Source: a virus
Taxonomy: Duplodnaviria; Caudoviricetes
Direction: 5' to 3' (one strand)
DNA length: 64,000 nucleotides
Virus record (IMG/VR): IMGVR_UViG_3300033177_000258
The position numbers were made by a program, and so were the translations under genes. Shown here one piece after another: positions 2 through 60,323 of this stretch; the first letter of the stretch is position 1, and the number at the start of each line of letters is the position of its first letter. The notes under the pieces are model-generated. The model was not told the origin of the DNA. It saw only the letters and a program-made list of their open reading frames with translations, and did no database searches.

Positions 2-754
2 AAGGTACCAATTGTTGCCTACGCTTACGCCAGCGACCGCATCACGGCTTACGGTATGCGCGGGCAAGCAGACCTCATACTCGAACGCGGTACATTCTAC
101 CTCTGCGTCGTAGTAGAGCTCCCCGAGCCTCTCAAGTCAGAGCCTAAAGACTGGCTCGGCGTGGACATGGGTGTCGTCAACATTACCACCGACAGCGACG
201 GCGAGAACTTCAGTGGGGCCGAGGTCAATGGCCTACGCCGTCGCCATGCGTCACTACGGTCCAAACTCCAAAGCAAAGGCAGCCAGTCGGCTACGCGTCG
301 GCTAAAGCAGCAGAGCGGGAAAGAGGCTCGTTTTGCCCGAGACGTGAATCACAGAATCTCCAAACATGTAGTCGCGAAAGCCCAAGGCACCGACCGTGGT
401 ATTGCCGTCGAAGACTTGACGGGAATCCGCGAGCGGGTAACGGTTCGCAAGGCTCAGCGTCGCGCACTACATTCTTGGGGCTTCCACCAGTTGGCCTCGT
501 TTGTCGAGTACAAGGCTGCGTTGGCAGGTGTGCCGTTTGTCAAGGTAGACCCCAAGAACACGAGCCGAACTTGTCCTGGGTGTGGTCATGTCGCGAAGGA
601 GAATCGTCCTACTCGCGACCAGTTTCTCTGTGTGTCGTGCGGTCTCGCTGGGCCAGCCGACCACTTCGCTGCGGTCGAAATCGGCCGTAGGGCTGCAGTC
701 AATCAGCCATACGCGGGGGCTCTGACGAACCACCTGCGAACTACGCTACTTTAG
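2..754 (+). CDS. tnpB: TnpB RNA-guided nuclease (IS200/IS605 OrfB family), cassette E1, 5'-truncated by window edge
   Basis: RuvC motifs GVDMG, AVEDL, ADHFAAVEI; zinc finger CPGC..CVSC; near-identical to 32978..34126; omega-RNA-type end AGTAGTTGAC at 762-771. Confidence 0.92.
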   Translation, partial: KVPIVAYAYASDRITAYGMRGQADLILERGTFYLCVVVELPEPLKSEPKDWLGVDMGVVNITTDSDGENFSGAEVNGLRRRHASLRSKLQSKGSQSATRRLKQQSGKEARFARDVNHRISKHVVAKAQGTDRGIAVEDLTGIRERVTVRKAQRRALHSWGFHQLASFVEYKAALAGVPFVKVDPKNTSRTCPGCGHVAKENRPTRDQFLCVSCGLAGPADHFAAVEIGRRAAVNQPYAGALTNHLRTTLL

Positions 755-785: not shown

Positions 786-3700
786 ATGAGACTCGAACAG
801 CAAGGGACCGCCTGGAGGAAGACCATCGGGCCTGGTGATGTAGAGAACCGGGTCATGAGCACCGTGGAGACGCTGCGCACATCCGTGGCAGAGCTGCACG
901 GTGATGGTACTTTGGGGGACACCCTCAAGGTTCTGGAAGCTGCCGGTGCTATCGGGTTTGGGGAAGCCTACAGTGGAATCGTGCTGGTGGAGACCGGCAT
1001 CGCCTACATTGACGGCTACCGCTCTGCCTACTCCGGCGCCTACCTCTCCGTGCCTCAACCATACGTTGCGGTTGAGGCCCAGGAGTTGACGCTGCTGGAA
1101 AGCGAGGGGCCGGGGCAGAACTCCACCCGCTATGAACTGGCGAGAGAGGACGTGGTGGACGATGGCTCGTTCGTGCTCTACAAGCGCAATAGCGCCACCG
1201 GAGTGGATGAGGCTCTCACCCGGTACAGCCAGTACACCCTCGATGCCGCCCACGGCATCGTGACCCTGCTCGTTGAGCTCGGGGCCGAAGAAGAGTTGCG
1301 CGCCACCTACCGTTTCCGCGTGCCGGGCATCCTGTTTGTGGAGCTCGACCAGCAGGGGACACTGCATTGCAGTGTCGGTACCAGTGTGGCCGAGGACTCT
1401 GTGCCCGGTCAGGGCTGGGCCCCCGGCCCGATTGAAGAAGAGGAGTGGGAGTACACCCCCGGAGCCGCAGACGACCCCTACTTCCAGAGCGCCTACAACG
1501 GCTACTTCGCCCTGCCGCCCACGGCTTCTACTGGCACCATCCTGCTGGCTAAGCTGTACTACCCCGGACCCAAGGGCAAGCTGTACCGCAACATGGAAGA
1601 AGACGCGACGCGGGAGCTGACCGGCCTCAGCGCTGACGACATCATCAGTGGTGACTACGGCATCATTGACGACGAGCGCCGCATCCTGACACCGGCTGAA
1701 GACCTTCTGGACTTCCAGCAGGCGTTCAACGACATGATTGACGACATGAACTCAGCCGTGGCCGGGGCGGAGTTGGCCTTCTCCGAGGGGCGCCTCCGGG
1801 CCGCCGACCTGGACGGCGAAGGCATCGTCACCGGGGTTGTCCCGACAGGCGGCATGCAGAGCATGTACGTCAACATCTCGGCCGGCGTGGCCTACATTGA
1901 GCAGCATCTGGCCCAGCACGACTGGCTCATGCGGGTGGTTGTCCCGAGCCAGACAGTCCAGCTTGACGAGCCAACGGACGCCCCAAGCGAGAACCGCACC
2001 GTCACCGAGGGCCACCTGTACTCTCCGTCAACGACAGAGTACGCGCTGAACGTCGAGCCGGCCACCACCATCCTGTCTGTGAGCGGCGAAGTGGCCTACA
2101 GGTACACCCAGGCCAATCCTGCGCTGCTTACCAAGCGCCTGAGCGGCACGTTCTCCGCTTCCAAGCCCGCCGACAAGCCTACCTACGCCCTCTTCGACGC
2201 CACCTGCACGGCGTTGACGACCGTCGAGCGCGCCAAGCTCGAAGCGGCCGATTCGAACTCTGCCGCCAACGACAGCGCCGCCGAGAACCTGCATCACTCA
2301 CTGCACGTGTTCAAGGTCGAGCACCCATACGCAGCCGACAAGGCCCACACCATCAACTACCGCTGGGACGGAACCGGCAGCGGCGGCGCGGAACTGTTCA
2401 TCTTCAACTTCAACACCGACGCCTGGGTGAGCCTGGGGACTGTTGGCGCGACGCTGGCTTCGCTACAGGGCACCATCACAACCAACGTGACCAACTACAT
2501 CAGCGAAGGCGGAGACATCTACTTCGCGGCGGCCTCGACCAGCGCGTCCGATGGCGGTACGGCTGTGTCTGTCACGAGTGACTACTTCTACATCAACCTG
2601 TACGCCGGCCACTACGTAGTGGGAGACCTGGAGCAGGGCGAGAGCGTCCCGAACGACAGCTACAACCTCGCCGGCAACAAGGTGGTCTTTGAGGACGACA
2701 GGTTCGCGTACCCGCGCGCCGGCACCACCTTCGCGGTCCAATACTACGCCGCCCTGCCGCGCTACGACGCTCTGCAGGTGGGACTTGACGGCGCCGTTCA
2801 TGTTGTCAAGGGCACCCCGGCCGAGAGCCCCGTCATCCCAACCATCAATGATGAGCACCTGCTGGTAGCTAACGTCCTGGTTAGGCATGAAGGGGCCGTG
2901 GTGGCGTCCACCGAGGCGGCCGACAACGACAATGCTCTGTACGACCGGCGCCAGGTCATCTGGACAGGCGATGAGGGCCAGGCCGCTCGCGAAGACGCGT
3001 CCAGCCTTGTTGAGAACCTCCGCATGCGTACCTATGAGTTGCACGGCAATGTGGTGAGCAGCGGCTGCCGCGCCTATGCCTACCCCTCGGCGGCCGGCTC
3101 CTCCATCGTGCGTGTGGGCTCGGGCGTCTACTACGCTCTCGGCTACCGCCGCGAGTATGCCGGCTCTCTGCTGACCTACAACTTCGGCAGTCTGGCCGAC
3201 AGTGAACACCGTCGCGACATCATCTACATGGACACCGAGGGCGTCGTCTACAATGCTCTGGGTACCCCAGTGGCGCTTACCGAGGTCTCCGAGCCGCCAG
3301 ACCGCCCAGCCGGCACCATCCTCATCGCCTACGTGGAAATGACCGCTGACCTGGTGGCTGCTTCACGGGTTCCGCAGACCGCAATATACGACATGCGCAC
3401 CGTGCAGGGGCAGCCCGATACCGGAGGAGATGACGGGGAAGACCCAGTTGTGGTGGTAGACAACAATCTTCTGGCATACTTCAACGAGCTAGGCGGGGAA
3501 GGGCTGCTCGCGGCGGATGTCAGTGTTGTCGCCAAGGCCACCCCATCGCGCTCTGTGGACCTGTCTACTGCCACCACCAGCCGGGCCTACATTTCCGGTC
3601 AGCGAGTGCTGCCTGACGCCATGGCTAGCAGCTACAAGACCTACGAGGTGTCGCGGCCGGGCGCCATCGCCGCCACCAACGACGAGAACCCGAACTTCCA

Positions 3701-5837
3701 TCCGTTCATCAGTCTGCCGCAGGAATCCGCCGAGGCCAACTACTTCAACCTTTGGTCTCACCTGAGCCCCATCGAGGGGCTGCAGTTTCCACTGCAGAGC
3801 GTCTCGCGCATCAAGGCCAACGCCTGGTGCGACCACACCTTCCGGCGCGCGCACGGCGCGGCTCACACCAACCGCGCCTGGCACCTCTCGTACACCTCGC
3901 TGGCAGTGGACCCCGAGTCCCTGCCGGGCGCGGCAGAAGAGTTCGACAGCGATGGCTTCGAAGTCAACGGCGAGCCCGTCCTCACCGGTGAGTACGAGAG
4001 CTACGAGAACATGATGTTCTCTGATGGCATCGCGGCCACCAGTGAATCTTCGCCCGACAACGGCCACTACATGATGCACGTGTTCGCCTTCCGTCACGTC
4101 ACCAATGGTGGCACGGTGGCCCGCATCAAAGCGCGTTGGGACGGTACCGGAGAGAAGCCCGACGCCAACAACGACATCAGCTACGGGGCCATCCTTCAGA
4201 TATGGAACGGAAGTTCATGGGAGACCCTGGCCGACTACGACGAAGACAACCTCGGCACGGATGTCGCTATACGGCTGGAAGGCCAGGTAACGAGCAACCT
4301 GGACGACTACCGCCAGACAGATGACTACATCTACATCCGCGTCTACAACCCGCTGGCCGCAGACGGAACGCGCGGCTCGGAACTCTCCACCGACTTCGTG
4401 TGCGTCTGGGTCCTGGAGAACGGGCGGTGGATGGTTCCCAATAAGGTCTACAACGGCCACTTCGAACATGGCACCGGCATGCCTTACGGTTGGGAAGTCG
4501 TACAGGGCTCGGCCAGTTGGGACAGCTCTCAGGCCGACTCCCTGGCCAACAAGTACAACTGGTACAAGGACTGGGACTGGCTGGACAACATTGACACCGG
4601 CAGCCGCACGGAAATGGACTCCGGCTTCTACAATGACTTCCGGTCAAAGTGCCTGTCGCTCAGCAATGGAGGGTCGGACACCATCCGGGTACGCCAGCGC
4701 TTCGCCATTGACCAGGACTCTGGCACGGCGTTCCTGAAGCGGCCGGTGCGCTTCTCGTTTGACTACTGGCGCAACATCACCGAGGGCGAGCAGGACGAGA
4801 ACTTCTCCGTCCGCCTGCGGCTGTGGAACGTGGACAACGAACTGGAAGCCGACAACACCATCATGCTGGATGTGGGCTCGTGTTCATGGGAAGAGAAGGT
4901 CTACAACTTCATCCCCGAAAAGCACCTGAGCTACGGAGAAGTCACCATCCTGCTGGCCGACAAGACCGGCACCGCGAAGTTCGACAACTTCCGTCTCGTT
5001 GAGCTCCCAGATGGGACTTTCGAGACGGTGGACGACGAGACGACATTCTACTCGTTCTACGTGGAGCACGATTACGAGGTGGGGCAGGACCGCATTGACT
5101 GGCGCTGCTCTGGCTTCGACCCCTACATCGCGAGCGACTATGAGGTCACCTACCGGCACTGGCTACTGCGCACCGATAGCTGCCAGCTCACAGCCGGCAA
5201 CAGCTTCGCGGTCTACACCGGCGCTGAGGGTGCCACCGCGACCCCGCCCCCGCAGCAGTTGCGCTGCCTGGAGTTGGCGCGCATCGTCATCCGGGGCGAC
5301 CGGCCCATCAAGGATGCCGACGACGGCTGGTGCTCCTACATCGCGAACCTCAACCCCGTCATCTTCACTGGCGACGAGGGCGTCGAACACCGCGTTGAGC
5401 TGGCCAAGCTCCAAGCCGAGCTCGGCCCCCTGATGCGCAACAGCTTCCTGTTCGGCTGCACGCCCACGCGTGTCAGCAGCACGAAGGTTACGGTGGGCAT
5501 CGGTGCCTATTGGTGCGATGGAGTTGAGATAGAGAGGTTGGAGGTCGGCGAAGCCGGCACTCCGGGGGGAGAGAGCGGACGCTACTACCTGGTGGCTACC
5601 GCCGACGCCAACGGCGCCCCTACCTTCTCATGGGTCTACTGCGCCAGTGGTTGGCCGAGCACAGGCCCGGCCGTGATGCAGATTTCCTGGGACAAGGACG
5701 CCGGGACTTTTGCCGACGACATGGTGGACCTGCGCGGTATCCAGAACGCTCCGCCTCCCGCAGATGCGGTGGGCGTCCTGTCGGAGAGTGTCTTCTCCGA
5801 CCAGCACTTCACGCACGTGTTCAACTTCCGCAAGTAA
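786..5837 (+). CDS. Large virion structural protein (tail fibre/baseplate-like), 1683 aa
   Basis: Long acidic, beta-rich ORF with an internally repeated module (R-x-D...G-T-P...P-P...L/I-A) three times; next to an Ig-domain protein. Confidence 0.6.
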   Translation: MRLEQQGTAWRKTIGPGDVENRVMSTVETLRTSVAELHGDGTLGDTLKVLEAAGAIGFGEAYSGIVLVETGIAYIDGYRSAYSGAYLSVPQPYVAVEAQELTLLESEGPGQNSTRYELAREDVVDDGSFVLYKRNSATGVDEALTRYSQYTLDAAHGIVTLLVELGAEEELRATYRFRVPGILFVELDQQGTLHCSVGTSVAEDSVPGQGWAPGPIEEEEWEYTPGAADDPYFQSAYNGYFALPPTASTGTILLAKLYYPGPKGKLYRNMEEDATRELTGLSADDIISGDYGIIDDERRILTPAEDLLDFQQAFNDMIDDMNSAVAGAELAFSEGRLRAADLDGEGIVTGVVPTGGMQSMYVNISAGVAYIEQHLAQHDWLMRVVVPSQTVQLDEPTDAPSENRTVTEGHLYSPSTTEYALNVEPATTILSVSGEVAYRYTQANPALLTKRLSGTFSASKPADKPTYALFDATCTALTTVERAKLEAADSNSAANDSAAENLHHSLHVFKVEHPYAADKAHTINYRWDGTGSGGAELFIFNFNTDAWVSLGTVGATLASLQGTITTNVTNYISEGGDIYFAAASTSASDGGTAVSVTSDYFYINLYAGHYVVGDLEQGESVPNDSYNLAGNKVVFEDDRFAYPRAGTTFAVQYYAALPRYDALQVGLDGAVHVVKGTPAESPVIPTINDEHLLVANVLVRHEGAVVASTEAADNDNALYDRRQVIWTGDEGQAAREDASSLVENLRMRTYELHGNVVSSGCRAYAYPSAAGSSIVRVGSGVYYALGYRREYAGSLLTYNFGSLADSEHRRDIIYMDTEGVVYNALGTPVALTEVSEPPDRPAGTILIAYVEMTADLVAASRVPQTAIYDMRTVQGQPDTGGDDGEDPVVVVDNNLLAYFNELGGEGLLAADVSVVAKATPSRSVDLSTATTSRAYISGQRVLPDAMASSYKTYEVSRPGAIAATNDENPNFHPFISLPQESAEANYFNLWSHLSPIEGLQFPLQSVSRIKANAWCDHTFRRAHGAAHTNRAWHLSYTSLAVDPESLPGAAEEFDSDGFEVNGEPVLTGEYESYENMMFSDGIAATSESSPDNGHYMMHVFAFRHVTNGGTVARIKARWDGTGEKPDANNDISYGAILQIWNGSSWETLADYDEDNLGTDVAIRLEGQVTSNLDDYRQTDDYIYIRVYNPLAADGTRGSELSTDFVCVWVLENGRWMVPNKVYNGHFEHGTGMPYGWEVVQGSASWDSSQADSLANKYNWYKDWDWLDNIDTGSRTEMDSGFYNDFRSKCLSLSNGGSDTIRVRQRFAIDQDSGTAFLKRPVRFSFDYWRNITEGEQDENFSVRLRLWNVDNELEADNTIMLDVGSCSWEEKVYNFIPEKHLSYGEVTILLADKTGTAKFDNFRLVELPDGTFETVDDETTFYSFYVEHDYEVGQDRIDWRCSGFDPYIASDYEVTYRHWLLRTDSCQLTAGNSFAVYTGAEGATATPPPQQLRCLELARIVIRGDRPIKDADDGWCSYIANLNPVIFTGDEGVEHRVELAKLQAELGPLMRNSFLFGCTPTRVSSTKVTVGIGAYWCDGVEIERLEVGEAGTPGGESGRYYLVATADANGAPTFSWVYCASGWPSTGPAVMQISWDKDAGTFADDMVDLRGIQNAPPPADAVGVLSESVFSDQHFTHVFNFRK

Positions 5838-28676: not shown

Positions 28677-29801
28677 GTGCGTACTGACATCTTAATCCCC
28701 TGCGCCGCATACCACCGCGAGCGCTTCCTCAAGGCTGTGCCCCTGTGGAACGAAGTCGCTCAGAGCAAGCTGGTGGGGCGCATCCTCGTCGTCTGCCAGG
28801 GCTGGTACCCCGTGGAAGACCAGCTCGGCAAAGTGGACGCCCTCATTGACGTTCCATCTGACAAGTGGCAGCCCAGCGTTGCCCGCAACGCCGGCCTCTC
28901 TGCACTCGAATCCGAGCTGGTGCTGTATTGTGACGCGGATGTGGTCATGCTCCCCGACACCGTGCGGGCGCACGTCTACGCACACAAGGGGTCCGAGGAG
29001 CCCAGGCTGACGGCCAACCTGCACAAAGACATCGCCACTGATGCCCCCCTGCCTTTTACTGTCGAGGAATTGGAAGCGTTGAACGTTCCCGACATGTGGC
29101 GCTCGATGCGCGTTGACTGGCGCGTGGCCATACTCGAAGAGTGCCGCTGGCTGGAGTACCCGCCTTCAGTGCCTCTCTGGTCGCTTGGCGGGGGCAGTGG
29201 TATCTGCCTTCCCCGCGAGTGGGCCCAGGCGGTCGGTGGCTGGAACGAAGACTTCCAGGGGTGGGGCTACGAAGACGCCGAGTTCTGGTACCGCTGCCAG
29301 AAGAGCGGCCTCAAGTTCGAGTTCATCAAGCAGTACGCCTACCACCAGCAGCACGAGGTGGACATCCCGCGCCGCATCGCCGACTCGCAGGAAAACTCGC
29401 AGATGTTCACAATCGAGCGCGACAGTTGCAAGGTCACCTACATCGCTGATGCCGTGACGGATGACCTGGCCCAGCTTGTGCTCGACTCCGAGTACAATGC
29501 CGAAGTCATCGGCGCCTTCCCGCTCAACATGGCCAGCCCCATGGGCATCCGCTCCGTCCCGGCCGCTGCCGACCAGCCGGCCGAAGCGTTCCGCGCCTTC
29601 GCGCGCGGTTGGTACCTGTGCGATATGCGGGGCGACCGGCCCGAGCCGTCCAGTTCCGACTGGCACAGTCTCACCCACTGCGGTAGTCACACCGTCCAGC
29701 TAGGCGGGTTGGACTACATCCCCAAGTCTTCAACCGGGTTCGTGCAGCACCGGGTATCTGGAGGAGCTCATAATGTCGAGACAAGTAGCGGTCCTTACTG
29801 A
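28677..29801 (+). CDS. Glycosyltransferase family 2 (GT7C-like C-terminus)
   Basis: ARNAGL, CDADV, GGWNEDFQGWGYED. Confidence 0.88.
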   Translation: MRTDILIPCAAYHRERFLKAVPLWNEVAQSKLVGRILVVCQGWYPVEDQLGKVDALIDVPSDKWQPSVARNAGLSALESELVLYCDADVVMLPDTVRAHVYAHKGSEEPRLTANLHKDIATDAPLPFTVEELEALNVPDMWRSMRVDWRVAILEECRWLEYPPSVPLWSLGGGSGICLPREWAQAVGGWNEDFQGWGYEDAEFWYRCQKSGLKFEFIKQYAYHQQHEVDIPRRIADSQENSQMFTIERDSCKVTYIADAVTDDLAQLVLDSEYNAEVIGAFPLNMASPMGIRSVPAAADQPAEAFRAFARGWYLCDMRGDRPEPSSSDWHSLTHCGSHTVQLGGLDYIPKSSTGFVQHRVSGGAHNVETSSGPY

Positions 29802-31030: not shown

Positions 31031-32080
31031 ATGAGACAGGCAGCCGTATTGACCAGCGTACCCATCCATCTGCTCGGGGAGGGGCAGCGTATCCCGCAGA
31101 TGCTGGGGCGCCTAAGCGAGCTGCCCGGCGTCGAGACGCACGTTGTGGAGACGCACATCTACGTGCCCGGCGCCGGCGCCGTCTACACCGGGGAGAAGGT
31201 CAAGGAGGCTCTCGACACCATCTTGCGTCAGGGCCCCACGGTCATCATCATCGCCCAGCCAGTGGCAGCGGCGCTACCCGCATTGTTGGAAGCGCAGAAG
31301 CGCGGGGCTAAACTGGTGTACGACCGCTTCGAGAGCTGGAAGGACTTCCCCGGCAACGAGACCTGGTACCGCCCCCAGCAAGAGACCGCCATCATTGTGG
31401 CCAGCGATGGCCTGGTCTCGACCTACCGCGACTCGCTCTTCGATTCCTATGACCGCCCCAAGCTGCTGCTGCCGAACGCCGCCAGCGACGCGCCACTGTG
31501 GCCCCAGACACAACTCAAGGGCTCGCGCGGCCGCAGTGTGGCTCTGGCCAGCTCGGCCGTGTACGTGGGGAGCATGGACCCCCGCTACATAGACATGGAC
31601 GCCATGCGCCATGTGGGAGAGGCGCGCCCGAGCGCCTTCTACGGCAAGCCTCCGGGCCAGCGCATCATGGAGGACGGGATGTCGCCGGTGCAGTACGGCG
31701 CCTCGGGCTGGCTGGTGGGTTGGGTGAACCATGTCAACCTGAGCTTCGCGCTCGCCTCCGGCGACGGCAAGTACAATGACCGGCGCAAGGTGGGTTTGCT
31801 CCCGTTCCTCGACATCCCGTTGACCGAGAAGGTCTCCCCCATCAAGTGGTGGGAGTACCTGCTGGCCGGCGTTCGCCCGGTCACCATGCACCTGAGCCAG
31901 GTCGCGGAAATGCCCTTCGGCGTCTACACCGACGACATCAACGCGTTCCTGTACGCGGCCATCACCGCTGCCCCGTTCTCCGATGAGGAAGCTCGCGAGG
32001 CTTCCAACTGGGTGCGCGAACACCACATGTGGGCGCACCGCGCCAAGGTTCTCAACGCCTGGATGGAGGGCTTGCTCTGA
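31031..32080 (+). CDS. GT-B (GT4-like) glycosyltransferase
   Basis: KLVYD, LLPNA, YVGSM, GLLPF...SPIK.WEYL.AG, H.W.HR. Confidence 0.75.
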   Translation: MRQAAVLTSVPIHLLGEGQRIPQMLGRLSELPGVETHVVETHIYVPGAGAVYTGEKVKEALDTILRQGPTVIIIAQPVAAALPALLEAQKRGAKLVYDRFESWKDFPGNETWYRPQQETAIIVASDGLVSTYRDSLFDSYDRPKLLLPNAASDAPLWPQTQLKGSRGRSVALASSAVYVGSMDPRYIDMDAMRHVGEARPSAFYGKPPGQRIMEDGMSPVQYGASGWLVGWVNHVNLSFALASGDGKYNDRRKVGLLPFLDIPLTEKVSPIKWWEYLLAGVRPVTMHLSQVAEMPFGVYTDDINAFLYAAITAAPFSDEEAREASNWVREHHMWAHRAKVLNAWMEGLL

Positions 32081-32922: not shown

Positions 32923-32977
32923 ATGGGCATAACCTTTTTTCGTCAATGTATGTCACAGCATGGAATACTTCATGGTG

Positions 32978-34126
32978 ATGAAGACTACACTCAAGCTGAA
33001 GCTGCTCACAAGCCCGGACCAGCACCAGGCCCTACTCACTACTCTGGAGGTCTTCAATGCCGCCTGTAACTACCTGGCAGAAGTGGCATTCGACAACCAT
33101 ACCGCGAACAAGCTGAAGCTGCAGAAGCTGGCCTACCATGAGACCCGAGAGCGCTTCATGCTCCCGGCCCAACTGGCCGTTCGCGCAATCGCTAAGGTTT
33201 GCGAAGCCTACAAGCGGGACAAGTCAACCCGACCAACCTTCCGGCCGCATGGGGCAGCCATCTACGACCAGCGGGTCCTCTCGTTCAAGGGTCTGGACAC
33301 CGTGTCCATACTCTCCCTCTCCGGCCGGCTCAAGATTCCAATCGTAGTCCACGGTTACGCCCACGACCGAATCACAGCCTACGGCATGCGCGGCCAGGCC
33401 GACCTGCTCTACCAGCGCGGCACGTTCTACCTGTGTGTCGTGGTTGAGCTTCCCGAACCTCCTCCTGGTGAGACTAAGGACTGGCTCGGCGTAGACCTCG
33501 GCATGGTCAACATAGCCACCGACAGCGACGGAGAGAACTTCAGTGGTGCCGAGGTCAACGGCCTCCGTGCCCGGCACAATGCCCTTCGGTCCAAACTCCA
33601 GGGCAAGGGCACGAAGAGCGCCCGTCGTCGTCTCCGTCAACAGAGCGGACGGGAAAACCGCTTCGCCCGAGACGTAAATCACAGAATCTCCAAGAAGCTA
33701 GTCGCGAAAGCCAAAGGCACCGAGCGTGGCATTTCCGTAGAAGACCTGACGGGAATCCGCGAGCGGGTAACGGTTCGCAAGGCACAGCGTCGCGCGCTAC
33801 ATTCTTGGGGCTTCTACCAGTTGGCCTCGTTTGTCGAGTACAAGGCTGCTTTGGCTGGTGTGCCGTTTGTCAAAGTAGACCCCAGGAATACCAGTCGAAC
33901 ATGTCCTTGGTGCGGTCATGTCGCGAAGGCGAACCGTCCTACTCGCGACCAATTCCTCTGTGTGTCGTGCGGTCTCGCTGGGCCGGCCGACCACTTCGCT
34001 GCGGTCGAAATCGGCCGCAGGGCTGCAGTCAATCAGCCGAACGCGGCAGCAGTCATATCGCTAGCTGCGAGCCCTAAGGATTGCAACAGGGTAGTTGACA
34101 AAACCAGCCAAAAACCTTCTGGGTGA
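32978..34126 (+). CDS. tnpB: TnpB, cassette E4 (full length)
   Basis: N-terminal HTH region, GVDLG, SVEDL, ADHF, zinc finger; omega end GTAGTTGAC at 34091-34099. Confidence 0.93.
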   Translation: MKTTLKLKLLTSPDQHQALLTTLEVFNAACNYLAEVAFDNHTANKLKLQKLAYHETRERFMLPAQLAVRAIAKVCEAYKRDKSTRPTFRPHGAAIYDQRVLSFKGLDTVSILSLSGRLKIPIVVHGYAHDRITAYGMRGQADLLYQRGTFYLCVVVELPEPPPGETKDWLGVDLGMVNIATDSDGENFSGAEVNGLRARHNALRSKLQGKGTKSARRRLRQQSGRENRFARDVNHRISKKLVAKAKGTERGISVEDLTGIRERVTVRKAQRRALHSWGFYQLASFVEYKAALAGVPFVKVDPRNTSRTCPWCGHVAKANRPTRDQFLCVSCGLAGPADHFAAVEIGRRAAVNQPNAAAVISLAASPKDCNRVVDKTSQKPSG

Positions 34127-34134
34127 GAACGGTC

Positions 34135-37100
34135 ATGAGTAGTTCGCCGAATCACGGGTTTGTGAACCTGCACGTCCATTCCGAGTACAGCGCGATGGAC
34201 GGCGTAAGTACGTGCAAAGAGTTGGTGAAGCGCGTCGGGGTGCTCGGGCAGACGGCCCTGGCTCTCACGGACCATGACGGTCTGTACGGCGCGGTTGACA
34301 TCTGCGAGAGCGCCTTGGCGAAGGATGTCAAGCCCATCGTTGGTTGCGAACTGCGGTTCGTGCCCGACATCTCCGAGAAGGTGCGGGGCTGGCACATCAC
34401 TGCTCTGGCGCTGACGGAGCAGGGGTACCGCAACCTCTGCGACTTGGTGACGGAAAGCTACCGCCCCAAGAACTTCTTCTACAGCCCCCGCATCCCTCTG
34501 CAGTCGCTTCTGGAACGACAGGAGGGTTTGGCGCTGCTCTCTGGCTGCTGGTTCGGGTACCCGGCCCAGACCTACGAGCAGACCGTCCACGGCGGCCGCG
34601 ACCGGATGGCTCAATTCCAGGAAATCACCAGCGCTCTGCAGTCGGCCTACGGCGAGCGCTTCCTCTTCGAGCTCTTCACTGGCGACTACGCCCATTCTCG
34701 CGAGGCCATCACGTTCCTGCTCGACGCCTCGGCCAAGTGGGGCATCAAGACTGTTGCGACCAACGACTCCCACTTCGCCGCCCCCGAGGACTGGCGCAAG
34801 GCGGAGTTGATACGTCGCATCCGCATGAAGGGCAAGGACGAAGAGGGCAATGCCATGCCCCAGCACCAGTACCTCATGGGTGAGCAGGAAATGCGCACAC
34901 TGCTCCCAGAGGAAGCGGTGGACAACACGGTGATGGTGGCCGGCTGGGCGGAGTACGCCTTGGACCTGGCCATTGACCGAGAGGGCCACGTGCTGCTGGA
35001 CAAAGTGCTGCAGCGCCTGCCGAAGCTGCCTCTGGCTGAGGGACAGACGGAGTGGGGCGCATTCATTGAGGCCATCAAGCAGGGGTGGCAGAAGAGGATG
35101 GGCTACCTCACCGAGGAGCAGCGGCCCATCTACCACGAACGTCTACTGCGGGAAATCGAGGTCTTCAAAGAGACCGGCCTGGCCGGCTATATGCTCATTG
35201 TGGCCGCGATGACCGATTACTGCGCGGAAAACGGCATCCTGCGGGGCCCCGGCCGAGGCTCGGCGTCAGGGTCCCTGTGCTCCTTCCTGCTGGGTATCAC
35301 CGACCTTGACCCCATAGCCTCCGGCTTGTTCTTCGAGCGGTTCCTGGACGCCCGGCGCGCCAGCATGCCAGACATTGATGTGGACTACGACCCGGACGAC
35401 CGGGAGCGTGTGTTCGCCTATCTGCAGCGGACGTATGGTGTTGACCACGTGGCGCGCATCCTGACCTTCCAGCGGTTGGTGGGTAGCAGCGCGGTCAAAG
35501 ACGTGGGCTCCATGATGGGGGTCAGCTACGACGAGCTCAACAAGCTCACTTCGGCCATCGAGGACTTCGATGAACTGGATGTGAGCGAAGGCGCCCCGCC
35601 CTCCGACAAGAACAAGGAGGCGCTCGGGGTCATCGCTCAGAACCCGGACCTCGCAGCGGTGGTGCAGCAGGCCAAGCTGATTTCTGCCGACGAGAAGACC
35701 AAGACCAAAGGGGTCATCCGTCAGGTAGGTGCCCATGCGGCCGGCGTGGTTATCGCCCCCGGCCCGGTGCGCTACCTCTCTCCCACCCAGCTCACCAAGC
35801 GCGATAGCAACCTGGAAGTCTTCCAGTGGGACATGGGCGCAGTAGACAAGATGGGTCTGCTGAAGATTGACGTTCTCAACGTCAGGACCCTCGGCATGGC
35901 GCGCGACATCATCAGCCTGGTCAAGAAGCGGCATGGGGTGGAGCTCGACTGGTACTCTATCCCAGTCGAAGACCCCGCCGCCTACGAAATGGCCGGGCGC
36001 GGTCGCACTACCGCCATCTTCCAGCTTGAGAAGCGCACGGCCCAGGAGCCACTGAAGAAGATTAAGCCCAACTCGCTGTTGGACTTGGCTGTCGTTCTGG
36101 CGCTCAACCGTCCGGGCCCCATGGAGTACATGGAAGAGTACGCCATCTGCAAGAACGACCCGTCGCAGATAACCTACGACCTGCGCGAATGGGAGTCGGT
36201 GCTGGCCGAGACTTACGGCATCATGGTCTACCAGGAGCAGGTCATCCAAGCCCTGCAGGCGCTGGGATTCGACTTCACCGAAGCCGACGACTTCCGCCGA
36301 GGGATGGCCAAGAAGAAGCAGGACCTCATCGAGGCGGCCAAACTCAGGGTCGTGCCCAAGATAATCGAGCGTGGGTACTCCGAAGCTCACGCTGAAGCCG
36401 TCTGGGCGAAGATAGCCAAGTTCGGCGGCTACGCGTTCAACAAAGCGCATGCTGTGGCGTATGGCGCGATTTCCGCCCGCATGCTGTACCTGAAGACCCA
36501 CTACCCTGCGGAGTACATGGCAGCCGCTCTGACCTCCCAGGACAAAGAGGAGTTCTTCACCAGATACATCGAGGAAGTCTCGCGCCTGGGTCTGCGCTTG
36601 CTGCCTCCCGACATCAACGAGGCCAGCGAGAGCTTCACTCCAAGCGACGGCGCTGTGCGGTTCGGTTTCTCTCAGATTTCCCACATCGGCGCCGTCGCCA
36701 AGGCCATAGTGGCGGCCCGCCTGGTCCGCCCCCGAGGATGGCGCGGGCCCGAGCCGGAGAACGGGGTGTACCCGTACCAAGACCCACTAGACTTCTGCCG
36801 GCGCCTGAAAGACCACGGCATGAACCGGCGCCAGTTGGATGCTCTGGTCTGGGCTGGGGCGTTCGACGCCTTCTGCCCTTCGCGGGCTTTCCTGGCCGAC
36901 AAGGTTGACCAACTCATGGGCATGGCGAAAGCCGGCCGCACCTCAGTGGAGGCTTTGGTGACGTGGGAGTCTCTGTTGGCGGACGCGGAACTGCGCCCCG
37001 ATGACGAGGACCTGCTGGCCGACAAGGAGCAGGAGTTGTTGCGCTGCTCGCCGCGTCGCATGGCGCAGGACATCAGTTTGCGTGAGCGCATAGGAAAGGG

Positions 37101-37386
37101 TACCGCGCCCCTGTCCCAGCTCGAACCGCAAGCCAAGGGCGTCAAAGTCTGCGGGCGCATCCTCGAAATCGGTAAGCGCTCTGGCAGGAAGAACGACTAT
37201 GCCTACCTGCAGTTGAACGACGGGACGGCCATCATGCGATGCCTGGCGTTCAAAGAAGAAGTCATCCAGCAGCTATCGGACGAAATAGGTCCTCAGGCAG
37301 CAGTGGTGCTACAGGGAGACGTGAGTGATGACGGGACGGCGTTCTTCATTCGCAAAATAGTGCAGTCTGACGCCGGCGCAAGTTAG
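34135..37386 (+). CDS. dnaE: DNA polymerase III alpha subunit
   Basis: PHP HVHSEYS/TDH/TNDSH, GRGSASGS, MPDIDVD, GLLKID, YAFNKAHA, OB fold. Confidence 0.96.
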   Translation: MSSSPNHGFVNLHVHSEYSAMDGVSTCKELVKRVGVLGQTALALTDHDGLYGAVDICESALAKDVKPIVGCELRFVPDISEKVRGWHITALALTEQGYRNLCDLVTESYRPKNFFYSPRIPLQSLLERQEGLALLSGCWFGYPAQTYEQTVHGGRDRMAQFQEITSALQSAYGERFLFELFTGDYAHSREAITFLLDASAKWGIKTVATNDSHFAAPEDWRKAELIRRIRMKGKDEEGNAMPQHQYLMGEQEMRTLLPEEAVDNTVMVAGWAEYALDLAIDREGHVLLDKVLQRLPKLPLAEGQTEWGAFIEAIKQGWQKRMGYLTEEQRPIYHERLLREIEVFKETGLAGYMLIVAAMTDYCAENGILRGPGRGSASGSLCSFLLGITDLDPIASGLFFERFLDARRASMPDIDVDYDPDDRERVFAYLQRTYGVDHVARILTFQRLVGSSAVKDVGSMMGVSYDELNKLTSAIEDFDELDVSEGAPPSDKNKEALGVIAQNPDLAAVVQQAKLISADEKTKTKGVIRQVGAHAAGVVIAPGPVRYLSPTQLTKRDSNLEVFQWDMGAVDKMGLLKIDVLNVRTLGMARDIISLVKKRHGVELDWYSIPVEDPAAYEMAGRGRTTAIFQLEKRTAQEPLKKIKPNSLLDLAVVLALNRPGPMEYMEEYAICKNDPSQITYDLREWESVLAETYGIMVYQEQVIQALQALGFDFTEADDFRRGMAKKKQDLIEAAKLRVVPKIIERGYSEAHAEAVWAKIAKFGGYAFNKAHAVAYGAISARMLYLKTHYPAEYMAAALTSQDKEEFFTRYIEEVSRLGLRLLPPDINEASESFTPSDGAVRFGFSQISHIGAVAKAIVAARLVRPRGWRGPEPENGVYPYQDPLDFCRRLKDHGMNRRQLDALVWAGAFDAFCPSRAFLADKVDQLMGMAKAGRTSVEALVTWESLLADAELRPDDEDLLADKEQELLRCSPRRMAQDISLRERIGKGTAPLSQLEPQAKGVKVCGRILEIGKRSGRKNDYAYLQLNDGTAIMRCLAFKEEVIQQLSDEIGPQAAVVLQGDVSDDGTAFFIRKIVQSDAGAS

Positions 37387-37445
37387 AGAAGCGCGGAATA
37401 CTTCTATGCGAGCAAGTAGAACATAGTCTCATATATGAACTTCCA

Positions 37446-38555
37446 ATGCAACGCACTCTCTACATCCAATTGGTAGTTTCCCCCGAACAAGGCAGAGCCA
37501 TCGGCGTCACGATGGCTCTGTATACGGCTTGCTTCAACGCGGCCACTCGGTTCGGTTGGGACAACCATACGGTAAATGGAGTGGAGCTACATAAGGGCAC
37601 CTATGCTACCCTTCGCGCCCAGTACCCCGAGCTTCCCTCCCAACTTGTCTGCTCTTCTCGCGTCAAAGCGACAGAGTCACTCAAGTCAGTCCGCGCCCGT
37701 CTCGCCAAGGGCAAGAAAGCATCCTGCCCGCTCTCCCGTCTTCAGTCGGTACGCTACGACGCCCGTTCCTACACCATTTCCCTCACCGAAGGCTGGGCCA
37801 CTCTCGCCACGGTCGCCGGCCGTCAGCGCGTCACATTCGACGCCGGCTTCACCAGGCTCCAGACCTGGAAGCCCACCTCGGCCGAACTCGTCTACCGTCG
37901 CAACCAGTTCTGGCTCCACGTCGTTGTAGAGTCCCCCGCCCCCGTCTACACCGCAACCGGCGAGGTTGTCGGTGTAGACTTGGGCATTGTCCGCCCGGCC
38001 GTCACCTCCGAAGCCCAGTTCTTCGGTGAGCGGCGCTGGCGCAACGTCGAACAGCGGTACTTCCGTCTTCGCAGAGCCTTGCAGGCAAAGGCCACTCGCT
38101 CCGCCCGTCGTAAGCTACGTAAGCTCTCGGGCAAGCAGGCTAGGTTTCGCCGCGACTGCGACCACGTACTGTCCCGCCGCCTTGTAGAGTCCGTTGACCC
38201 AGGAGCCGTACTCGTCTTCGAGAACCTGACTGGAATCCGTGACCGCGCTGACTTCGGCCGGCATGGCAACCGTCGTCTCCACGGGTGGAGCTTCGCCCAA
38301 CTGTTCGCGTTCACGGCCTACAAAGCCGAGGAAGGCGGCAAGACGACGGCGACGGTAGACCCGCGCGGGACGAGCCAGAAATGCTCGCGGTGCGGACACG
38401 TCGCGCGGGGCAACCGCGTCAGCCAGTCAGAGTTCCGGTGCCAGAAGTGCGGCTTTCGAATCAACGCTGACCTCAACGCGGGACGAAACGTGAAGGGGAA
38501 GTACCTGGTCCGAGAGGGCAGCGCCGTCTCGGGCGGGCCGCGTCAACCGGCCTAA
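37446..38555 (+). CDS. tnpB: TnpB, cassette E5 (third family, full length)
   Basis: GVDLG, VFENL, NADLNAGRNV, CSRC/CQKC; omega end GTAGTTGAA at 38595-38603. Confidence 0.93.
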   Translation: MQRTLYIQLVVSPEQGRAIGVTMALYTACFNAATRFGWDNHTVNGVELHKGTYATLRAQYPELPSQLVCSSRVKATESLKSVRARLAKGKKASCPLSRLQSVRYDARSYTISLTEGWATLATVAGRQRVTFDAGFTRLQTWKPTSAELVYRRNQFWLHVVVESPAPVYTATGEVVGVDLGIVRPAVTSEAQFFGERRWRNVEQRYFRLRRALQAKATRSARRKLRKLSGKQARFRRDCDHVLSRRLVESVDPGAVLVFENLTGIRDRADFGRHGNRRLHGWSFAQLFAFTAYKAEEGGKTTATVDPRGTSQKCSRCGHVARGNRVSQSEFRCQKCGFRINADLNAGRNVKGKYLVREGSAVSGGPRQPA

Positions 38556-38632
38556 TGCAGCGTGTTGTTTGCGGCTGCAAGCTACCTTTGGGTAGTAGTT
38601 GAATCGTAAGATTGTCACATTGAGGAGCTGGT

Positions 38633-39346
38633 ATGCGTCTTTCTATCCTAACTCCAACAATCAGGGGTAGCCGCTGCGATGCGCTCTCTCGGGTAGTTGG
38701 CGACCTGCGCCAACATTGGGATGTGACTTGGTGGCTCTGCCCCAATGCTCCTGGATGGGACGCCCGGCCGCCGCTGTTTGCTCGGGTTGTGCCCCTGGTG
38801 TTCTCTGGCCCGGTGCCGGTTCTCTCTCGCATCAACCAGGCGCGCGAACTGCTGAGGGTAGCGGCATCGTCGTGGCCGGCCGACGTGGTTGTGTGGCTGG
38901 ACGATGACATGACACCCACGACCGAGCAGCTACACCAGCTTGCGTCCACGGCCATCCGTTCCGATACGCGAGGGCTTCTCGTCTCGCCTGTGATGCGGAA
39001 CCGACATAGCACCGATGACTACACCTGTGCCTGGGTCTTCACCCAGACTGCCGTGGAAGTTCGTGGAGCGGACCTGGACTTGTCCATCCACGGCCTGTCT
39101 TTCCTCCCGTCATCCGTATCCCGTGAAGATAGGGGATTCGTATGGGCCCACGGAGTGGGACTCGGTTGTGTCGCTCACCCCTGGGCCTTCTTGCTTGAGT
39201 TCGCCTTCCCTGCCGCCGAGGTGGCTGACGACGAGTGGTTGTCGCGCGCGTTCGCTGCGAGCGGGCGCACTGGCATCATTGTTGACTACACGCTTGACGT
39301 GGGGCACATTGATGCAGATAAGGAGCACTCATGCCCAGAAGTCTAA
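38633..39346 (+). CDS. GT-A-like glycosyltransferase
   Basis: WLDDDM, GVGLGC, DD, paralogous to 32080. Confidence 0.65.
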   Translation: MRLSILTPTIRGSRCDALSRVVGDLRQHWDVTWWLCPNAPGWDARPPLFARVVPLVFSGPVPVLSRINQARELLRVAASSWPADVVVWLDDDMTPTTEQLHQLASTAIRSDTRGLLVSPVMRNRHSTDDYTCAWVFTQTAVEVRGADLDLSIHGLSFLPSSVSREDRGFVWAHGVGLGCVAHPWAFLLEFAFPAAEVADDEWLSRAFAASGRTGIIVDYTLDVGHIDADKEHSCPEV

Positions 39347-58564: not shown

Positions 58565-59185
58565 ATGCAGTACAGCGGCACCCCCATCATGGCCCTGGAG
58601 GCCCCGAGCCAAGAGCGCCTGATTGAGGCGTTCTGGTCATCCGGCTTGTGTGCGCTTCAGGTGGTGAACCCGAAAGTCTTTGCGCGCCCTTTGCCGGCGC
58701 AAGAGGGCGAGCACAACGCCGTGCACGACGCCGCGTCGGCGGCCCTGCGGTCCAGCACATTGTCTCGCTACGTCGCGCTGGACATGACCCATAACGTAGA
58801 GCCGGAGACGATGGCGGCTGCCGTCGCGCTTTGCATGGTCACGCAGGCCGAGCTCCTCGTGGTCTCCGAGTACGGCCACTTCCCCATGCTCTTCCGGCAA
58901 CTGCTGCAGGTGAATGAAGTCGCCGACGCCGACGCACTCATTGCACTCGCTGGTCAGCTACTAGGTAAGGACCACGAAGAGCGACGCATGAACATCCCCC
59001 TGATGGCGACGCTCTCCCTGCCGGTTGAGGGCGCGGGCGGCGTATCGCTCGGGGACGCGGACAAGGTGATGGAGCTCCTGCGTCTCGCGTTCAACAACGC
59101 GGCGAACATCAAGCCGGCCCCGGACCACATCATCATCCACGCCATGGCCAGTGTGGTCATGCCGAAACCCCTGTTGGAGGGCTAA
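58565..59185 (+). CDS. Hypothetical protein
   Basis: ORF in operon. Confidence 0.6.
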   Translation: MQYSGTPIMALEAPSQERLIEAFWSSGLCALQVVNPKVFARPLPAQEGEHNAVHDAASAALRSSTLSRYVALDMTHNVEPETMAAAVALCMVTQAELLVVSEYGHFPMLFRQLLQVNEVADADALIALAGQLLGKDHEERRMNIPLMATLSLPVEGAGGVSLGDADKVMELLRLAFNNAANIKPAPDHIIIHAMASVVMPKPLLEG

Positions 59186-59186
59186 C

Positions 59187-60014
59187 ATGGAACTGCACGT
59201 CTTTGGCACCCAAGAAACCATCCACCTCTCGTACAGCGAGATTCCGTGGGATGTAGACACGAAGCAGCGCACCGACCTGGACCCCGGCACCGGCGAACCC
59301 ATGATGGAGTTCGTGCTCGACGCCGATGGCAAGATGAAGCGAGACGAAAACCTCAACCCGCTGATGCGGGCGGCGGACGGTAGCGAAGTCCCGGTGAAGA
59401 CCGACGTGTGGGTCGAGAACCGCGCTTTCACCGTCCCCTTCGGCCCCTGCTGCATCAACCAGGAAGTCAAGCAGACGCAGTACGCCGACCGCCCCGACGT
59501 GCAGGTCTGTCGCGGCACCTGCTGCCGCCAGCCGGTCTCAGTGAAGGTTAGCACCATCGCGGCCATCCTCAAGCACATGGATGGCATCCTCAAGCACATG
59601 CCCCCGGCGAACGCGAAGCTGGCTTCGCTGGCGAGCCCGTTCCGCCACGAGTCCATCCGCCCGATGCCCGATGGCTCCTGTATCTTCTGGAACCCGGTCA
59701 ACGGCCAGTGCGCGCTGTACAACTACGCCCAGGCCAACGGCCTGGATGTGAACCGCCTGCGGCCCATCCCATGCTCGCTGTTCCCCCTGCAGATTCAGGC
59801 CGGCTGGCTCGACCAGACCCCGCGCTACTTCGCGATGTTCATTGACCCCATCGTGATGCAGCAGCACAACATCGCCTGCCCCACGGCCGGCAATGGTGCC
59901 TGCAAGCCGGCGTACCTGAGCCTGAAGCGCGAGTTCGACACCGCCTTCGGGGAAGGCTTCTGGGAGGTCATGGTAGACGTGTATGAGCGGCACTTCAGAC
60001 CAAAGCACGAGTAG
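59187..60014 (+). CDS. Cys-cluster protein (DUF3109/YkgJ-like)
   Basis: C.GTCC, CIF, CAL, RP..CSLFP, FG..F. Confidence 0.6.
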   Translation: MELHVFGTQETIHLSYSEIPWDVDTKQRTDLDPGTGEPMMEFVLDADGKMKRDENLNPLMRAADGSEVPVKTDVWVENRAFTVPFGPCCINQEVKQTQYADRPDVQVCRGTCCRQPVSVKVSTIAAILKHMDGILKHMPPANAKLASLASPFRHESIRPMPDGSCIFWNPVNGQCALYNYAQANGLDVNRLRPIPCSLFPLQIQAGWLDQTPRYFAMFIDPIVMQQHNIACPTAGNGACKPAYLSLKREFDTAFGEGFWEVMVDVYERHFRPKHE

Positions 60015-60041: not shown

Positions 60042-60323
60042 GCAAGACGACGGCGACGGTAGACCCGCGCGGGACGAGTCAGAAGTGCTCGCGGTGTGGG
60101 CACGTTGCGCGGGGCAACCGCGTCAGCCAGTCAGAGTTCCAGTGCCAGAAGTGCGGCTTTCGAATCAACGCTGACCTCAACGCGGGACGGAATGTGAAGG
60201 GGAAGTACCTGGTCCGAGAGGGCAGCGCCGTCTCGGGCGGGCCGCGTCAACCGGCCTAATGCAGCGTGTTGTTTGCGGCTGCAAGCTGCCTTCGGGTAGT
60301 GGTTGACGGTGGATGTTTACTAC
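60042..60323 (+). ncRNA. Cassette E7: tnpB-less omega-RNA unit (E5 family) with guide from 60308
   Basis: 266 bp nearly identical to 38338-38603, ends TTGAC at 60307; TATATT immediately upstream. Confidence 0.8.

Follow-up and report, generated by a model that had tools for sequence, protein, structure and literature searches.

Organization of the E5 locus

In a 64,000-nucleotide (nt) stretch of DNA from a virus of the Caudoviricetes (IMG/VR record IMGVR_UViG_3300033177_000258; hereafter the window), we analysed E5, a tnpB gene that follows the phage gene for the alpha subunit of DNA polymerase III (dnaE). Starting from a TTCAT motif near the dnaE 3′ end that resembles a transposon-associated motif (TAM), the locus comprises the last codons of dnaE, a promoter-like motif, tnpB, an omegaRNA scaffold running into the right end of the element and, past that end, the guide position and the next phage gene (Table 1). 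Comparison with cassette-free relatives places the E5 cassette within an ancestral overlap of dnaE and the next gene, with one copy of the overlap on either side. Of this anatomy, as described in the following, we are highly confident.

Table 1 Features of the E5 locus, followed by the flanking genes and the other TnpB elements of the window (aa, amino acids; IS, insertion sequence)
Feature	Position	Strand	Remark
TTCAT, TAM-like motif before the resident copy	37345..37349	+	codons F, I
Left overlap copy, replacement dnaE tail IRKIVQSDAGAS plus stop	37350..37386	+	guide counterpart, with mismatches, in its first 13 nt (37350-37362)
Phage promoter-like motif GGAATACTTC	37395..37404	+	8 nt past the dnaE stop
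IS left-end remnant	37412..37445	+	sole part homologous to the L009 left end
E5	37446-38555	+	tnpB, 369 aa
omegaRNA scaffold and right end	38338..38603	+	overlaps the tnpB 3′ end, ends GTAGTTGAA
Guide position	38604..38623	+	38604-38617, displaced original dnaE tail/old next-gene start; 38618 onward, 27-nt insert
27-nt insert relative to L003	38618..38644	+	source of the GAGGAG ribosome-binding site, the ATG (38633) and the re-spelled R-L-S codons of the next gene
Remainder of right overlap copy	38645..38670	+	in dnaE frame, runs to the ancestral TAG
dnaE (DNA polymerase III alpha)	34135..37386	+	1083 aa from ATG 34135; alternative start GTG 34123
Next gene	38633..39346	+	237 aa, without a Pfam family; in relatives, begins within the dnaE 3′ end
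E1	2-754		tnpB gene or gene part
E2 fragment	28584-28378	-	3′ fragment
E3	30998-29811	-	tnpB; TnpB family other than that of E5
E4	32960-34126		tnpB, directly upstream of dnaE
E6	53926-52922	-	tnpB
E7 fragment	60042-60307		stand-alone omegaRNA copy, guide from 60308

E5 TnpB carries the Pfam domains OrfB_IS605 (PF01385, E = 5.9e-11) and Cas12f1-like_TNB (PF07282, E = 4.9e-20), and matches Cas12f and TnpB entries of the PDB with E-values down to 1e-24. Across an alignment of 18 homologous sequences, both the RuvC triad (D178, E259, D342) and the zinc-finger cysteines (C313, C316, C332 and C335, forming two CxxC pairs) were invariant. When compared with two variants from other samples, L109 and L096, the gene showed a ratio of nonsynonymous to synonymous polymorphism (pN/pS) of 0.17–0.18, arguing that E5 tnpB is under purifying selection.

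The omegaRNA scaffold of E5 is well preserved. It is 96% identical to E7 (60042–60306), a stand-alone 265-nt omegaRNA copy that corresponds to the E5 3′ end without the rest of tnpB, and it retains all four helices of an RNAalifold consensus built from 12 sequences, in which 19 of 35 pairs are accompanied by compensatory changes. Rfam searches at gathering thresholds matched nothing in the window. The right-end boundary is marked by the point at which homology between E5 and E7 stops (38602 and 60306, respectively), and the right-end motif GTAG(T/C)TGAC is common to E5 and its bacterial relatives, bar the last base. This base is A in E5 and L109 (TTGAA; at ~1348 in the latter) and C (TGAC) in E1, E2, E4, E7 and nearly all bacterial relatives with a located right end, while L096 ends in TTGAT.

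At the other side of the cassette we found no left-end hairpin. The interval 37350–37445 folds no better than its shuffles (z = +0.94), as compared with −22.4 kcal/mol and z = −3.4 for the left end of L009—the nearest full-length relative of E5, located (2885–4200) in prophage-like DNA with integrase, DnaB and MT-A70 genes. No TnpA gene adjoins E5, in a window for which no systematic PF01797 scan was made. With a promoter-like motif standing in the hairpin's stead, TnpA-driven mobility is therefore not expected. The consensus of this motif, GRRATACTTC, has seven copies in the window (9920, 32962, 37395 and 45995 on the plus strand; 16831, 31010 and 53930 on the minus strand). Four lie just upstream of the tnpB starts of E3, E4, E5 and E6, where they are flanked by short complementary bases (CATG/CATG, CGGG/CCCG, CGC/GCG and CAC/GTG), and three at sites without a TnpB element; the motif is missing from both empty sites of the relative L003 (see below). 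Probably, the tnpB genes have co-opted GRRATACTTC, a promoter or regulatory site of the phage. We also considered GGAATACTTC as a transposon-end signal and rejected this, given the three further copies away from any TnpB element.

An ancestral gene overlap on both sides of the cassette

A protein search returned two clusters of close dnaE relatives. L003 and L108 encode a DnaE that is 81% identical to that of the window at the amino acid level (73% at the nucleotide level), have the gene order Anp1-like gene, dnaE, 213-aa gene, glycosyltransferase, and are otherwise syntenic. In the window, dnaE is bracketed by two TnpB cassettes, E4 and E5, and because L003 and L108 have neither, they represent the empty site. 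The TTCAT motif is present in L003 as well (4544–4548). An overlap of the two genes is the ancestral arrangement: in L003, in L108 and in the contigs carrying the dnaE relatives P0004 and P0003, the next gene begins ~32–59 nt before dnaE ends (~32 nt in L003, 53–59 nt in the P0003 and P0004 contigs).

Relative to this arrangement, the insertion point (TTCAT|) lies 12 codons before the end of dnaE, and each side of the cassette holds the target sequence from there up to the dnaE stop; the right junction is precise. MAFFT aligned the right flank of E5 with the L003 empty site from the first base past the right end onward, and the cassette-free L108 likewise aligns from the right-end boundary. 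Without the 27-nt insert, the right copy agrees with the L003 tail at 33 of 40 positions, has equal length and the same TAG stop, and translates to FIRKIVNPNSNNQG, compared with FIRKVVNSYSDDKG in L003. Over the first 14 bases after TTCAT, L003 matches the E5 guide at 12, the resident dnaE copy at nine. These alignments identify the right copy as the positional ortholog of the ancestral gene end, now serving at the guide position.

The resident tail, FIRKIVQSDAGAS, is more distant: it is identical to the L003 tail at 22 of 37 positions and to the right copy at 18 of 37, compared with 73% for dnaE as a whole. It aligns with the dnaE tails of P0003 and P0004 and is a replacement that retains the dnaE reading frame only, thereby keeping dnaE whole. 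That the tail might instead be encoded by an IS left end was considered and discarded, as it aligns with the P0003, P0004 and L003 tails and as the region is without left-end features.

To the right of the cassette, the next gene has been re-spelled as well. Its old frame, starting at TTG, now stops after three codons, and the 27-nt insert supplies a new start; as a result, the 14 nt at the guide position are no longer coding sequence of either gene. The junction at the guide position was identical in six other assemblies.

The guide position and its counterpart in resident dnaE

The TAM of the E5 clade can be read from relatives. Three 99.5%-identical copies in a Peptococcaceae metagenome-assembled genome (MAG) have unrelated upstream flanks and shared homology that starts at TTCAT; both Ktedonobacter copies begin with ATTCAT, and two Sericytochromatia copies have TTCAT or GTCAT. 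In L009, whose TnpB is 64% identical to that of E5, a perfect ribosome-binding site plus ATG for the neighbouring gene re-form when TTTCAT is joined to the right-end flank. Since the multi-copy relatives and L009 all show TTCAT at the left end, the alignments point to TTCAT as the TAM of this clade. Within the window, TTCAT precedes the resident dnaE copy, and GTCAT the corresponding paralog at E7. The L009 element itself separates a gene's ATG from its ribosome-binding site, and the left end of the element provides a substitute AAGGTG site as well as a TTGACG-N17-TATACT promoter for tnpB.

The 13-mer at the E5 guide position (38604–38616, directly past the right end at 38603) is identical to dnaE 37350–37362, read in the frame F-I-R-K-I-V, at nine of 13 bases. 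The mismatches fall on positions 4, 7, 10 and 13, all of them third codon positions and all synonymous (CGC/CGT, AAA/AAG, ATA/ATT and GTG/GTC); three lie within the 12-nt TAM-proximal stretch. The guide DNA is preceded by TTGAA, not by TTCAT. By itself, the 13-mer similarity is not significant genome-wide: matches of at least 9/13 occur at 3.9e-4 of positions, and 50 positions in the window reach this level. Its significance comes from position, frame, TAM and the outgroup alignment. Of all 102 TTCAT sites in the window, counting both strands, the dnaE site, 96 nt upstream of the E5 start codon, is the best (9/13, with 7/13 for the runner-up and 0.04 sites expected), and the probability of all four mismatches landing on the five wobble positions is 5/715.

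A previous sequence-only reading of the window had drawn attention to this resemblance, proposing that the E5 guide matches a dnaE C-terminus that is recoded in the resident copy. Its coordinates and letters were correct throughout, as was its description of the four differences as synonymous. The guide-position bases are indeed a paralog of dnaE C-terminal coding sequence and, by comparison with L003 and L108, the original copy. Likewise, AAA and ATA, which it had called rare in a genome rich in G or C at third codon positions (GC3), account for 16% of Lys and 9.6% of Ile codons in 20 long open reading frames with a GC3 of 0.79. The relation it had suspected between the E5 TAM and TCAT agrees with the clade TAM TTCAT, seen in three multi-copy or reconstructable relatives. 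What it overlooked were the position of the cassette within an ancestral overlap now found on both sides, the replacement tail past IRKIV, the re-spelled next gene and the missing transposon left end.

Similar layouts at E7 and E3

Two further cassettes in the window show a comparable arrangement. At E7, the guide 13-mer matches the tail of the upstream gene (59151–60014), after GTCAT (59967–59984), at 9/13 bases; the mismatches again occupy positions 4, 7, 10 and 13, every one of them synonymous. E5 TnpB could presumably use the E7 omegaRNA in trans. At E3, the guide position (29773–29798, minus strand) holds an orphan ribosome-binding site and gene start, and the far side (31031–31054, minus strand) the re-spelled functional start of a 349-aa gene. 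Judged by eye and uncounted, the orphan start is closer to the start in the L108 outgroup, with the same length and a second codon that is absent from the functional start. Taken together, these flanks show that the E5 layout recurs at E3 and E7. The right end of E3 (…GCGTCA) and its likely TAM are unlike those of E5.

The variant contigs L096 and L109 were considered as a candidate naive allele and rejected, as they have the same left junction and differ only to the right of tnpB. Several assemblies of this phage break inside E5 tnpB.

Phage setting and further TnpB elements

The window is part of a 215-kb phage-like contig with 61% G+C. An INPHARED megablast search gave zero matches to the window and hence no close relative among deposited phages, and the INPHARED protein search returned relatives of <35% identity only. 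In IMG/VR, queried with the DnaE protein and a C-terminal alignment, the best identity was 26%. The DnaE protein has the Pfam domains PHP, DNA_pol3_alpha, finger, HHH_6 and OB, and identical proteins (P0001/P0241) are found in at least eight contigs.

The tnpB inventory of the window comprises five complete or partial genes plus two 3′ fragments (Table 1). The right end of E4, GTAGTTGAC (34089–34099), lies 35 nt ahead of the dnaE ATG. The position of E4 looks intergenic, and a duplicated or re-spelled gene end was not seen there.

RNA-guided homing as a candidate function of E5

TnpB reinstates its own transposon after excision. For E5, we lean, by a little, towards a different use, namely that of a transposase-less TnpB–omegaRNA cassette acting as a free-standing homing endonuclease gene or rival-exclusion cassette. 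From the TAM to the right end, such a cassette would comprise, in order, the replacement dnaE tail, the promoter-like motif, tnpB and the omegaRNA scaffold, with the displaced original tail just past the right end being transcribed as guide. In co-infecting, cassette-free relatives, whose dnaE end is uninterrupted, the TnpB–omegaRNA complex would find TTCAT with the original tail directly behind it, and cut there. Repair from the carrier genome, relying on homology in dnaE to the left and in the displaced tail and next gene to the right, would then copy the cassette together with its replacement tail into the rival, neither TnpA nor a left end being needed; failed repair would leave the rival destroyed. 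The dnaE gene of the carrier would be protected by the mismatches at guide positions 4, 7 and 10 (and from 13 onward), and the guide DNA by TTGAA in place of the TAM.

For ISDra2 TnpB, ~12 TAM-proximal base pairs are enough for cutting, double mismatches within positions 1–12 abolish it and mismatches at positions 13–16 are tolerated (PMC10097598). By analogy with this behaviour, the resident dnaE allele is probably immune to E5, and the 14-nt ancestral match would be long enough for a naive allele to be cut. For E5 itself, we infer expression, guide processing, cleavage, resident immunity, homing and the first acquisition of the replacement tail. Whether E5, E3, E7 and further cassettes are, more broadly, natural RNA-guided, gene-drive-like phage elements that have given up transposition and invade essential gene ends with their own re-spelled replacement is, in our estimation of the sequence evidence, evenly balanced; this would make them an RNA-guided equivalent of the intronless homing seen with T4 Seg/Mob.

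Several observations weigh against homing. No cassette-free allele with the exact guide was found in IMG/VR or JGI metagenomes: the exact 18-mer or 19-mer of TTCAT plus guide had two matches in IMG/VR and six in JGI metagenomes, all of them chance matches in AT-rich, unrelated DNA. All six other assemblies of this phage that cover the cassette junction contain it. The nearest cassette-free alleles, those of L003 and L108, are mismatched at positions 4 and 8, within the 12-nt stretch, and might escape E5 cutting. They share two of the four guide codons (AAG and GTC, within the 12 of 14 matching bases), so that the expectation of the sequence-only reading that the guide codons would recur in related dnaE genes was borne out in part; an allele with all of them was not found. 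Guide positions 15–20 derive from the 27-nt insert and not from the ancestral tail, and the final right-end base (38603) is A in E5 but C in relatives. L096 (7448–7620) and L109 (1340–1421) share the exact dnaE–E5 left junction and then continue into other right ends, guides and genes; these junctions are either real E5-family recombinants or rearrangements, or assembly chimeras at the repeat. Four of four wobble differences occur in 8–15% of four-codon windows at the divergence between the window and L003, and selection for recoding is therefore not proven. The interpretation offered by the sequence-only reading is supported in part.

An unlikely, though still serious, alternative is that E5 is a relic with compensation. 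A canonical TnpB IS would have inserted at TTCAT| in the dnaE end, and a rare illegitimate recombination with a cassette-free genome would have restored the tail while deleting the left-end hairpin; the displaced tail would be a vestige, the differences between the copies neutral, and TnpB kept for another role, for instance with stand-alone omegaRNAs. Such a history would account for the truncated left end and for a guide that matches the ancestral tail over 14 nt only, and canonical relatives with both hairpins are indeed present in prophage-like and bacterial DNA. It is also consistent with the failure to find the exact target allele in IMG/VR, JGI metagenomes and the six other assemblies, and with wobble differences that are not rare at this divergence. 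Yet, gene-end duplication with a re-spelled functional copy is seen at three cassettes from two TnpB families in one window, which would require three separate rare rescues. Moreover, a mere relic sits poorly with a tnpB gene under purifying selection, an intact scaffold and a 14-nt vestige that is 12/14 identical to the outgroup despite being non-coding.

We regard it as distinctly improbable that the duplication came first, i.e., that dnaE and the next gene were freed from their overlap by a tandem duplication, that the TTCAT of the second copy then received an ordinary IS, whose TAM and left end were subsequently lost, and that the likeness between guide and dnaE reflects this older duplication alone. 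While overlapping genes are known to be separated by duplication, and the present structure, with an element flanked by two diverged copies, is compatible with this, none of the relatives compared has the duplication without the cassette. The two copies begin with no offset, the right one at the right-end boundary and the left one directly after TTCAT, the 8 nt between the dnaE stop and the promoter motif contain neither a second TTCAT nor upstream sequence of a second copy, and the same coincidence would be required at E3 and E7. Chance resemblance or an assembly artefact, lastly, is hardly credible. The 50 positions in the window with at least 9/13 matches, and the frequent breaks of this phage's contigs within E5, might suggest one or the other, but the dnaE site outranks all others among 102 TTCAT sites, against an expectation of 0.04, its mismatches are all at wobble positions, the outgroup alignment starts at the right-end boundary and extends 40 nt, and both junctions are identical across independent JGI, ENA and Logan assemblies.

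Relation to known systems

We found no published description of this architecture in the literature on TnpB and phage homing, marker exclusion, and free-standing or phage-encoded TnpB. A 2026 review treats the spread of TnpB into other genomes or co-infecting phages ("non-restorative homing") as theoretical only and leaves recoding unmentioned (PMC13565253). The E5 locus would provide a concrete natural architecture for such homing, inside the end of a phage replicative polymerase gene, with the old gene end reused as guide and the re-spelled end giving both gene function and predicted self-immunity. If active, cassettes of this kind would explain the several tnpB genes and orphan omegaRNAs in virulent and jumbo phages as well as a role of RNA-guided nucleases in phage–phage competition, and their guides could be retargeted simply via the DNA adjoining the right end. 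E5 also represents a compact 369-aa TnpB with a well-supported TTCAT TAM and a natural pair of matched and mismatched targets.

E5 has much in common with ISDra2-type TnpB (PMC8612924; PMC10097598; bioRxiv 10.1101/2023.03.14.532601): a RuvC nuclease with a zinc finger, a scaffold that overlaps the tnpB 3′ end, a guide taken from the DNA flanking the right end, a 5-nt TAM (TTGAT in ISDra2, TTCAT in E5) and a proposed role in cutting followed by homologous repair that copies the element. Unlike ISDra2-type elements, E5 has no TnpA in sight and a promoter-like motif in place of the left-end hairpin; its predicted target is the uninterrupted allele of another genome rather than an excision donor joint, and the cassette lies inside a gene end for which it brings a replacement. 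The bacterial TnpB-only elements (Peptococcaceae MAG, L010–L012; Ktedonobacter, L017/L027; prophage-like, L009) are 51–64% identical to E5 at the amino acid level (51% for L027) and share with it the right-end motif GTAG(T/C)TGAC, the omegaRNA helices and the TTCAT TAM. In contrast to E5, they have both subterminal hairpins, occur in several identical copies per genome and leave their target unduplicated, and L009 carries a sigma-70-like promoter in its left end.

A functional parallel would be the free-standing homing endonucleases of T-even phages, such as SegF and MobE, with their intronless homing and localized marker exclusion (PMC13565253, PMC2988022). As with E5, these are nuclease genes between conserved phage genes that are absent from relatives; and as proposed here for E5, their target lies in the neighbouring conserved gene of a rival, the self allele is set apart by base substitutions, and they spread through repair in co-infection. 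In E5, recognition would be by RNA guide and TAM rather than by protein, and the difference between self and non-self would extend to a whole re-spelled gene end left of the cassette, with the original end kept as guide template. TldR, a phage-borne RNA-guided repressor (PMC10705468), is like E5 a domesticated, transposase-less TnpB relative with an adjacent guide. TldR has lost the RuvC catalytic residues, whereas E5 keeps D178, E259 and D342—this intact triad led us to reject a TldR-like repressor for E5—and the E5 guide mismatches the phage's own gene.

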